A stretch of 64,000 bases of DNA, from the NCBI GenBank assembly GCA_022843285.1, contig JALHNY010000001.1, forward strand, positions 15,128-79,127, written 5' to 3'. The notes beneath the pieces are model-generated. The model worked only from the letters and a program-made list of their open reading frames with translations, was not told where the DNA came from and ran no database searches. This document shows, in pieces, positions 18 through 3,000 of this stretch; the stretch's first letter is position 1; each line of letters starts with the position of its first letter. The DNA is from Minisyncoccota bacterium (GTDB taxonomy: Bacteria > Patescibacteriota > Minisyncoccia > UBA6257 > 2-01-FULL-56-20). The position numbers and the translations under genes are program-made.

Positions 18-3000
18 ATGGGATCCAACATGCAGCGCCAGGCCGTCGGCTCCGTCCGCCCGCAGGCGCCGCTCGTCGGCACCGGCATCGAGGACCAGGT
101 CGCGCTCGACTCTGGCTACGTGATCCGCGCCAAGGAGAACGGCGAGGTCATCGAGGCGGACGCCAACCACGTGAAGGTGAAGTACGAGAAGAAGACCGAG
201 ACCTACAAGCTCGAGACCTTCAAGCGCTCCAACCAGTACACCTGCATCAGCCAGCGCACGCTCGTGTCGCCCGGCCAGAAGGTGAAGCAGGGTGACGTCC
301 TCATCGACGGCCCCTCTACCGACCACGGCACGCTCGCGCTCGGCCAGAACATGCTCGTCGCGTTCATGAGCTGGGACGGCGCCAACTACGAGGACGCCAT
401 CATCCTCTCCGAGCGCGTCGCGCAGGACGACCGCTTCACCTCGGTGCACATCGAGGAGTTCGAGATTGACGTCCGCGACACGAAGCTCGGACCCGAGATG
501 ACCACCATGGACATCCCGAACGTCTCCGAGGACAAGCTCCGCAACCTGGACGAGGCGGGCATCATCCGCATCGGCGCGGAGGTGAAGCCCGGCGACATCC
601 TCGTCGGAAAGATCAGCCCGAAGGGCGAGTCCGAGCTCACCTCCGAGGAGCGCCTCCTGCGCGCCATCTTCGGCGAGAAGGCCCGCGACGTGAAGGACTC
701 ATCGCTCTACGTACCCCACGGAAAGGAGGGCCGCGTCGTCGGCATCAAGGTCTTCGACCGCGAGCAGGGCCACCGCCTCGAGCCGGGCGTCATTCAGCGC
801 ATCCAGGTTGAGGTCGCGCAGCTCCGCAAGATTCGCGCGGGTGACAAGCTCGCCGGTCGCCACGGCAACAAGGGCGTCATCTCGCAGGTTCGCCCCGTGG
901 CGGACATGCCGTACCTCGCGGACGGCACGCCGGTGGACATCATCCTGAACCCGCTCGGCGTTGCATCGCGCATGAACCTCGGCCAGATTCTCGAGACGCA
1001 CCTCGGCTGGGCGGCTGACAAGCTCGGCTACCGGGCCGTGGCTCCGAGCTTCGATCCGGTTCCGGAGTCCGACATTCAGGCTGAGCTCAAGAAGGCCGGG
1101 CTCCCGGAGGACGGCAAGATTGACCTCTTCGACGGCCGCACCGGCGACAAGTTCGACAACCGCGTCACCGTCGGCCGCATCTACATGCTCAAGCTGAACC
1201 ACCTCGTCGAGGACAAGGTGCACGCCCGCTCCATCGGCCCGTACTCGCTCATCACCCAGCAGCCGCTCGGCGGAAAGGCGCAGTTCGGCGGACAGCGCTT
1301 CGGAGAAATGGAAGTCTGGGCACTCGAGGGCTACGGCGCGCGCCACACCCTCCAGGAGATGCTCACCATCAAGTCGGACGACGTGCTCGGCCGCTCCTCG
1401 GCGTACGAGTCCATCATCCGCGGCGAGCCGATCAAGGAGCCGAACCTCCCGGCCTCGTTCAACGTGCTCGTCAACGAGCTCAAGGCGCTCGCGTTCAACA
1501 TCCGCCCGGTCTTCGATGACCAGGACGCGCGCCCCGAGGACTTCACGGGCCTCAAGATTTCCGTCGCATCCCCGGAGGACATCATGCGCTGGAGCTACGG
1601 CGAGGTGACCAAGCCGGAGACGATCAACTACCGCACGCAGCGCCCGGAAAAGGATGGCCTCTTCTCGGAGCGCATCTTCGGTCCCGAGAAGGACTACGAG
1701 TGCTACTGCGGCAAGTACCGCCGCATCCGCTACAAGGGCATCACCTGTGACAAGTGCGGCGTCGAGGTGACGAAGGCTGCGGTGCGCCGCGAGCGCTTCG
1801 GCCACATCACGCTCGCCGCGCCGGTGGGCCACATCTGGTTCCTCAAGAGCCTCCCGTCCCGCCTCGCGACCATTCTCGGCGTGATGACGAGCAAGCTCGA
1901 GCGCGTTATGTACTACTCCGCCTACATCGTCACCGCGGTGAACGATGACCAGCGCAAGCAGGCCCTCCTCGAGCTCAGCCGTGAGCTCAAGTCCAAGGTT
2001 GACGCAGCGGCGACCGAGGAGGCTAAAGACGAGATTAACACCTCCGCAGACAAGCTCCGCACGAGCCTCGAGGACCTCAAGCCCGGCCAGGTGCTCTCGG
2101 AAGCCGAGTACTTCACGCTCGCGCTCCGCTTCGCGCACGTCTTCAAGGCAGGATCCGGCGCGGAGGCTATCCGCGAGATTCTCTCCGAGATGGACCTCTC
2201 CAAGGAGATCGAGCAGATGGAGCGTGACCTGCTCGCCGCCAAGCGCCCGGCAAACGAGGTGAAGCTGCAGCAGCGCCTCACCATGTTCCGGGCCATGAAG
2301 AAGCACAACGCGCGGCCCGAGTGGATGATCATGACGGTCATCCCGGTGCTCCCGCCGGAGCTCCGCCCGATGGTGGCACTCGACGGTGGCCGCTTCGCGA
2401 CTTCAGACCTCAACGACCTGTACCGCCGCGTCATCAACCGCAACAACCGCCTCAAAAAGCTCCTCGAGATCAAGGCTCCGGACGTCATCGTCCGCAACGA
2501 GAAGCGCATGCTCCAGGAGGCCGTGGACGCGCTCATCGACAACTCCGCACGCGGGGGCAGCGCGCAGCAGCTCGTCTCGGCGCAGCGCCGCCCGCTCCGC
2601 TCGCTCGCGGACATGCTCAAGGGCAAGCAGGGAAGGTTCCGCCAGAACCTCCTCGGCAAGCGCGTCGACTACTCGGGCCGTTCGGTCATCGTCGTCGGCC
2701 CCAAGCTCAAGATCAACACGTGCGGCCTCCCGAAGAAGCTCGCGCTCGAGCTGTTCCGCCCGTTCGTCATCGGCGAGATGATCAAGCGCGGCAGCGCCCA
2801 CAACATCAAGGTGGCCAACCGCCTCATCGAGCAGGGCGGGGAAGAGATCTGGGAGATCCTCGAAGAGGTCATCGCGGACCGCCGCGTGCTCCTCAACCGC
2901 GCACCGACGCTGCACCGCCTCTCCATCCAGGCATTCAAGCCGGTACTCACGGAGCACCTCGCCATCCAGATTCCTCCGCTCGTCACGACGGCGTTCAACG

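Follow-up and report, generated by a model that had tools for sequence, protein, structure and literature searches.

The 64,000-nucleotide stretch of contig JALHNY010000001.1 (assembly GCA_022843285.1, Minisyncoccota bacterium) analyzed here, which is called the window at its whole length, opens inside a gene in which rpoB and rpoC, encoding the β and β′ subunits of RNA polymerase (RNAP), are joined in a single reading frame. It is very probable (roughly 0.9) that this is a genuine and evolutionarily fixed fusion giving one β-β′ polypeptide of ~253 kDa, which arose once in the ancestor of a Parcubacteria clade, independently of the fusions in Helicobacter and Wolbachia, and which is maintained by purifying selection. 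Judging from its relatives, the fusion is not peculiar to this genome and is a trait of the whole Parcubacteria clade.

The fused gene and its product

The fused frame covers positions 3..5234 of the window on the forward strand and consists, by translation, of 1743 sense codons followed by TAG. It is open at the edge of the window, i.e., the 5' end of the gene is cut off by the window start and the N-terminal 543 amino acids (aa) of β are encoded upstream of it. The list of open reading frames (ORFs) gives the gene as 18..5234 with 1738 aa, taking the first ATG, at nucleotide (nt) 18, as its start. The sequence-only reading of this DNA had taken over this count as a single ORF of 1,738+ aa, and was right that there is one ORF, the count being that of the part following the first ATG. 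The complete protein at NCBI (P0302; 2286 aa, calculated mass 252.6 kDa, 100% identical to the window part) contains the window part as an exact match from residue 544, and the true size of the protein is therefore 2286 aa. It is encoded on a contig of 164,811 bp. The features of the fused gene are as follows:

3..1502, forward strand: β (RpoB) module, C-terminal 500 residues, corresponding to aa 544-1043 of P0302 (Pfam, NCBIfam)
1503..1541, forward strand: β-β′ junction of 13 aa, without stop, start or frame change (translation)
1515..1529, forward strand: variable linker core DDQDA, 5 residues, the most variable columns by column entropy
1542..5231, forward strand: β′ (RpoC) module, from the conserved F-x-x-L-K-I-x-V-A-S-P strand to the C-terminus (TIGR02386, Pfam Rpb1_1 to Rpb1_5)
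1701..1757, forward strand: β′ N-terminal zinc-binding motif C-x-C-x15-C-x2-C, intact (translation)
2997..3017, forward strand: catalytic Mg2+-binding motif NADFDGD of β′, intact and nearly invariant in the clade alignment (translation)
5073..5231, forward strand: acidic C-terminal tail of ~53 aa, rich in D/E and specific to the sub-lineage (translation, comparison within the clade)
5232..5234, forward strand: stop codon TAG of the fused gene (translation)

The domain boundaries meet at the junction from both sides. In the window product, Rpb2_6 (aa 45-427) and Rpb2_7 (aa 429-501) of β are directly followed by Rpb1_1 (aa 513-883) and then by Rpb1_2 to Rpb1_5 up to aa 1628. Similarly, the NCBIfam rpoB profile PRK00405 ends at position 1093 of 1096 at aa 501, and the rpoC profile TIGR02386 matches aa 517-1676 with its positions 2-1139 of 1147 (1516.8 bits vs a cut-off of 963.5). 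The boundaries in Pfam and NCBIfam agree with each other and bear out the in-frame rpoB–rpoC fusion that had been claimed at positions 1500-1560. The complete protein is recognized both as an almost entire RpoB by NF001616 (1503.9 bits vs a cut-off of 896; residues 8-1044, profile positions 4-1093 of 1096) and by TIGR02013 (1497.3 bits vs 801), and as an almost entire RpoC by TIGR02386 (1515.4 bits vs 963.5; residues 1060-2219, profile positions 2-1139 of 1147).

Of the four zinc-motif cysteines, the first, third and fourth (C187, C202 and C205 in alignment A2) do not vary among 45 aligned sequences, and the second (C189) hardly varies, being present in at least 90% of them. The part of β′ that follows the junction comprises 1217 aa in L085, the closest relative, compared to 1162-1199 aa in most members of the clade. 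The acidic tail of L085 is similar in character and different in sequence, and most clade members are shorter.

The junction and its linker

The β C-terminus lies at aa 501 and the β′ N-terminus at aa ~514-517 of the window product, leaving ~13 residues in between. This junction contains neither a stop codon nor an in-frame ATG, GTG or TTG, as had been proposed from the letters alone together with the virtual absence of a linker. The first in-frame ATG beyond it is found at nt 1581-1583, 13 codons into β′ and within the conserved β′ strand-helix. Across the junction, the GC content at third codon positions (GC3) amounts to 0.90-1.0 in the fused frame, compared to 0.32-0.74 in the other two frames.

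Within the clade the linker follows the consensus P-[LVI]-Y-[ED]-x-[EP]-x-[DA]-R-[KR]-[DE]-[DN]. Both junction anchors were found in 114 of the 120 best homologues, and the spacing from PASFNVL to KPETINYR is identical in 103 of these. In the 103 homologues with this standard spacing, the flanking positions of the linker are strongly conserved (R28 in 94%, Y/F22 in 97%, F in 100%). Length variants among relatives range from +1 to +13 aa and fall mostly in or beside the variable core; as an example, L137 and L141 carry +8 aa at this core.

The tether is short. The alignment to E. coli ends at β residue 1338 of 1342 and resumes at β′ residue 12, and only 7 residues of the window product lie in between, whereas the free tails in E. 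coli sum up to 15 residues (β 1339-1342 and β′ 1-11). In solved bacterial RNAP structures the β C-terminus adjoins the β′ N-terminus. In a sequence search of the PDB, none of the 60 best matches listed bridges the junction. An AlphaFold2 (AF2) model of a 520-aa junction fragment places the linker between two strands, the order being helix, strand FNIRPV, a 12-residue loop, strand LKISVA and helix, with moderate local confidence, the predicted local distance difference test score (pLDDT) being ~66-79.

Conservation of the fusion in relatives

Database searching with the 1743-aa query yielded a set of 120 best matches (66-100% identity). All 120 are fused and contain all RpoB and RpoC Pfam domains, with lengths of 1624-2322 aa (median 2251 aa). 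The names of their sources comprise Candidatus Liptonbacteria, a member of the Parcubacteria group in the NCBI taxonomy, Candidatus Ryanbacteria, Candidatus Paceibacterota/Pacebacteria, Minisyncoccia and the 'Patescibacteria group'. The bin names of some Liptonbacteria appear to state a GC content of ~60%, provided that the naming scheme is understood correctly, and this would agree with the ~65% GC of the window. An earlier query with 360 aa around the junction had returned mostly short fragments and frameshift artefacts and under-represented the full-length family that was recovered later by the 1743-aa query.

Moreover, metagenomes were scanned with an alignment of the junction (A1), by which 328 relatives were found and 80 loci retained. 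The frame is open through the junction in 79 of the 80 loci, and complete ORFs from stop to stop have ~2240-2330 aa. These loci stem from groundwater (including Hainich), peat, soil and sediment samples, and many from metagenomes of the Joint Genome Institute (JGI). Even three error-prone long-read assemblies, in which frameshifts otherwise disrupt both rpoB and rpoC, have an intact junction. The comparison with L085, located on a 698-kb contig and 95% identical over the junction, revealed 17 synonymous and 4 non-synonymous codon differences in the 73-codon junction region, among them four synonymous changes and one non-synonymous change inside the linker. A natural β-β′ fusion is expected to show one uninterrupted frame that is conserved in relatives, and this is what was found.

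Origin of the fusion

When GTDB was scanned with one genome per species, 80 loci with rpoB and rpoC in a common frame were obtained. Fusion is seen in two of them only, namely L001, a metagenome-assembled genome (MAG) of Ca. Paceibacterota and the closest match, and L049 of Helicobacter muridarum, which served as positive control. A neighbour-joining (NJ) tree of 164 sequences, none of them from Wolbachia, was computed on 885 aligned columns from the last 450 aa of β and the first 650 aa of β′. In this tree the fused clade comprises 66 sequences with a distance to the window of at most 0.355, the next sequence being at 0.47, and it is monophyletic in 100 of 100 bootstraps. In 84 of 100 bootstraps its sister is L002, an unfused MAG deposited as Ca. 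Saccharibacteria, and in none of the 100 does Helicobacter group with the fused clade.

Since P0302 fails the models of both the Helicobacter and the Wolbachia type (scores are given in the last section), since the sister is unfused and since Helicobacter never groups with the clade, an independent origin is favored. The sequence comparison thus indicates that the fusion has a single origin within Parcubacteria and is independent of the Helicobacter fusion. Its independence from the Wolbachia fusion is suggested by the model score together with the unfused sister lineage.

The sister also gives a view on how the two genes may have been joined. In L002, the TAA stop of rpoB and the rpoC ATG lie in the same frame with 9 nt between them; if this were read through, the linker would exceed the fused one by 11 codons. 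Plain loss of the stop codon in a sister-like ancestor is thus insufficient as sole origin, and the shorter linker implies that the tails were deleted during the fusion or after it.

Proposed architecture and alternative explanations

In the proposed mechanism, rpoB and rpoC joined in frame would be translated as one chain of ~253 kDa forming the catalytic core of RNA polymerase. A short acidic loop would connect the last β strand (FNIRPV) with the first β′ strand (LKISVA). In enzymes with separate subunits the two chain ends are already neighbors in the clamp region, so that no structural rearrangement would be needed to tether them. A short surface loop of this kind is suggested because the tether is shorter than the free ends it replaces, because strands flank the linker in the model and because the ends are neighbors in the structures. 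The fusion would have arisen once in the ancestor of a clade including Ca. Liptonbacteria, Ca. Ryanbacteria and many MAGs named 'Paceibacterota'. By analogy, the large subunits would probably be bound to a 1:1 ratio and be assembled co-translationally, and the polymerase would otherwise be normal.

Several points weigh against a fixed single chain. For the isolated fragment, the overall quality of the AF2 model is poor, with a mean pLDDT of 59.4. L147 (ERZ1292629.1107-Hain-H43, ~9x coverage), a member of the fused clade, carries an in-frame TAA inside the linker at nt ~8133-8135 of the locus, reading TCC TAA TCT compared to TCC GAT or TCC GAA in relatives; thereafter the frame runs on to the usual end of rpoC, without a start codon in frame nearby. 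A sequencing error, a nonsense variant and a secondary re-split are all conceivable for this TAA; fusion may not be strictly required in the clade, or this contig of low coverage may contain an error. Moreover, the single chain is predicted from the genes of uncultured organisms and may be cleaved after translation. Reportedly, H. pylori with artificially separated subunits is viable, as attributed to Raudonikiene and co-workers in 1999; if so, such fusions can be nearly neutral.

A further reading takes the fusion as a rare genomic change of great age, defining a major radiation within Parcubacteria whose members would form the largest natural group with a single-chain β-β′. The fusion would perhaps be adaptive for genome-reduced cells, and the stop in L147 would represent occasional re-splitting. 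The fusion might, for example, take over the role of the ω subunit or another assembly aid, or fix the subunit stoichiometry. We regard this wider reading as rather unlikely. With E. coli, B. subtilis and Thermus queries, tblastn gave no match to ω (rpoZ) in the 64-kb window, which says little about its presence in the genome, ω being a short and divergent protein.

It is quite improbable that the gene is fused and separate β and β′ subunits nevertheless exist in the cell, either by proteolysis of the linker or by internal initiation of translation. Conservation is lowest in the middle of the linker and no other stretch tolerates indels, as expected of an exposed loop accessible to proteases. 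The stop in L147 falls exactly in this middle part; to our knowledge, no protease is known for this role. The ATG at nt 1581-1583 might serve as an internal start, but a start codon near the junction is not conserved, Met being present at nt 1581 in only 19 of 103 relatives and lying inside the conserved first helix. The fusion of H. pylori is said to have been found as one polypeptide by Zakharova and co-workers in 1998.

That two separate genes were falsely joined by an artefact, i.e., by loss of a stop codon or by a frameshift with compensation, can hardly be maintained for the fused gene. It is true that the protein database contains many spurious rpoB-rpoC 'fusions' (e.g., P0010, P0011, P0013 and P0016) and that a stop lies between the genes in 78 of the 80 loci of the GTDB scan, a set biased towards gene pairs in the same frame. 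However, the identical junction architecture occurs in more than 200 independent sequences of 63-100% identity from different samples, technologies and assemblers. In addition, the substitutions are mostly synonymous, GC3 is continuous in the fused frame, and the linker lacks 11 codons compared to what translation through stop, spacer and start of the sister would yield. The sequence-only reading had called for comparison with relatives so as to exclude a frameshift or the loss of a stop, and the conservation of the same junction in all 120 homologues and in 79 of the 80 metagenome loci does exclude an assembly artefact.

That the fused ORF represents a copy in decay or without function, with working rpoB and rpoC genes elsewhere in the genome, has practically no likelihood, as nothing speaks for it directly beyond the fact that only 64 kb of the genome are visible, while the ORF is intact at 2286 aa with its catalytic motifs present and scores above the curated cut-offs, purifying selection is strong, no second copy of rpoB or rpoC is found within the 64-kb window, the ribosomal-protein neighborhood of the fused gene is kept in relatives, and the contigs carrying it reach ~0.7-0.9 Mb, which would fit small genomes that rarely duplicate rpoBC.

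Genomic neighborhood and further features of the window

Downstream of the fused gene, three genes were assigned by Pfam:

5275-5676, forward strand: rpsF (ribosomal protein S6)
5743-6219, forward strand: ssb
6260-6685, forward strand: rplK (ribosomal protein L11)

The order rpsF-ssb-rplK after the fused gene is also found in the relatives L081, L082 and L083, and the upstream neighbors in relatives include a YceG-family gene, not rplKAJL. The order rpoBC-rpsF-ssb-rplK together with the YceG-family gene upstream in relatives shows that the classical rplKAJL-rpoBC linkage is broken. No S18 gene follows ssb in the window, and an ORF of 130 aa at 6820-7212 (forward strand) has no Pfam match.

Farther away, a complete 16S rRNA gene stands alone at 24814-26390 (forward strand), and neither a 23S nor a 5S match was found in the 64 kb; the rRNA genes appear to be unlinked. 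The sole tRNA of the window, Leu-GAG, is encoded at 27382-27468 (forward strand), ~1 kb downstream of the 16S gene. A class A RNase P RNA at 13953-14275 (reverse strand) scores 112 bits, barely above the gathering score of 100, suggesting a divergent or reduced version. Finally, a 1245-aa ORF of an SNF2-family helicase (SNF2-rel_dom, Helicase_C, ResIII) at 59707-63444 (forward strand) lies in the lowest-GC stretch of the window, with 47-53% compared to ~65% elsewhere (window GC ~65%). It looks horizontally acquired and is possibly related to defence.

Other fused and falsely fused proteins in databases

Among the top 150 representatives of clusters at 50% identity, 57 proteins have at least 1600 aa, and 26 of these contain both β and β′ modules, with linkers of ~10-100 aa. 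In metagenomic data, fused β-β′ proteins thus seem less rare than usually stated. The sequence-only reading had likened the present fusion to those of Helicobacter and Wolbachia and called such fusions rare; the likeness in architecture stands, and the rarity has to be qualified by these data.

Apart from the clade described here, there are at least 25 other clusters of long, apparently fused proteins at 50% identity (P0122-P0163, P0230), in which the β C-terminus and the β′ N-terminus are joined by linkers of 10-100 aa. Three of them (P0130, P0135 and P0137) have 6-21 members of mostly near-identical length. Ten representatives of other apparently fused clusters are mutually divergent and at most 68% identical to any named locus, and for several of the other clusters the closest sequences are alphaproteobacterial or from Chloroflexi, with an identity of just 50-60%. 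The database also contains many false rpoB-rpoC 'fusions' of 300-600 aa (P0010, P0011, P0013, P0014 and P0016), which are frameshifted or read-through calls from error-prone assemblies. In P0010, P0011, P0013 and P0016 the 'linkers' are junk-like read-through of intergenic DNA. Such false fusions matter wherever rpoB-rpoC fusions are counted by co-occurrence of domains.

Significance of the fusion

The clade would represent a third well-supported independent origin of a β-β′ fusion, fixed across a large and environmentally abundant group of uncultured, ultra-small groundwater and soil bacteria within the Parcubacteria. As a clean character of presence or absence, the fusion could help to anchor the contested internal phylogeny of Parcubacteria. 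NCBI names the proteins of the clade 'subunit beta′', 'subunit beta' or 'hypothetical protein', and the name 'subunit beta′' may reflect that P0302 fails both curated models of fused proteins. From this naming it is expected that pipelines treating rpoB and rpoC as separate single-copy markers mis-score these genomes. Furthermore, the compact natural single-chain core (~2250 aa, 13-aa linker) might serve as template for recombinant RNAP constructs. The understanding of RNA polymerase function is unchanged by the fusion.

Comparison with known fusions

Fusion of rpoB and rpoC is known from Helicobacteraceae and Wolbachia, as stated in PMC7483510, which cites Lane and Darst (2010) and Zakharova (1999). 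The RpoBC of Helicobacter and Wolinella (NF007172 / PRK09603) resembles the window protein in being encoded by a single ORF with the β C-terminus joined to the β′ N-terminus in the same order, and the locus of H. muridarum (L049) was scored as fused by the same procedure as the clade of the window. However, P0302 reaches 2181.1 bits with the Helicobacter-type model NF007172, far below its cut-off of 5372, and thus falls outside this family. The linker, measured from the last β strand to the conserved Phe of β′, has ~27 aa in Helicobacter compared to 13 aa in the window and differs in sequence as well, and the proteins differ in size, i.e., ~2890 aa in Helicobacter and ~2250-2290 aa in the Parcubacteria clade. 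The fused β-β′ of Wolbachia (NF011417 / PRK14844) is likewise a single chain with β preceding β′, found in a host-dependent bacterium with a reduced genome; with the Wolbachia-type model NF011417, P0302 scores 2059 bits, again below the cut-off (4632), placing it outside this family, too.

Moreover, a synthetic rpoB-rpoC fusion was shown to be functional (bioRxiv 10.1101/2021.11.05.467461) and a fused rpoBC construct is in routine use for the expression of M. tuberculosis RNAP (bioRxiv 10.64898/2026.04.06.716786). These engineered fusions, the tethered β-β′ of E. coli and the 'fused rpoBC' of pMP61 for M. tuberculosis, contain the same tether between the subunits and give active polymerase, but are artificial with designed linkers, whereas the natural linker in the window is shorter than the free tails of E. 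coli (7 vs 15 residues).

In the full-text library searched, no paper was found that describes the fusion in the candidate phyla radiation (CPR), Parcubacteria or Patescibacteria. The nearest entries in UniProt, A0A1G2CGB3 of Ca. Liptonbacteria and A0A1G2GW10 of Ca. Ryanbacteria, belong to the same family, share the same junction and are 66-68% identical to the window protein; both carry the label 'Multifunctional fusion protein', which was assigned automatically. The kind of feature is already known and members of the clade have been public for some time; in Parcubacteria the fusion is clade-wide and independently evolved.

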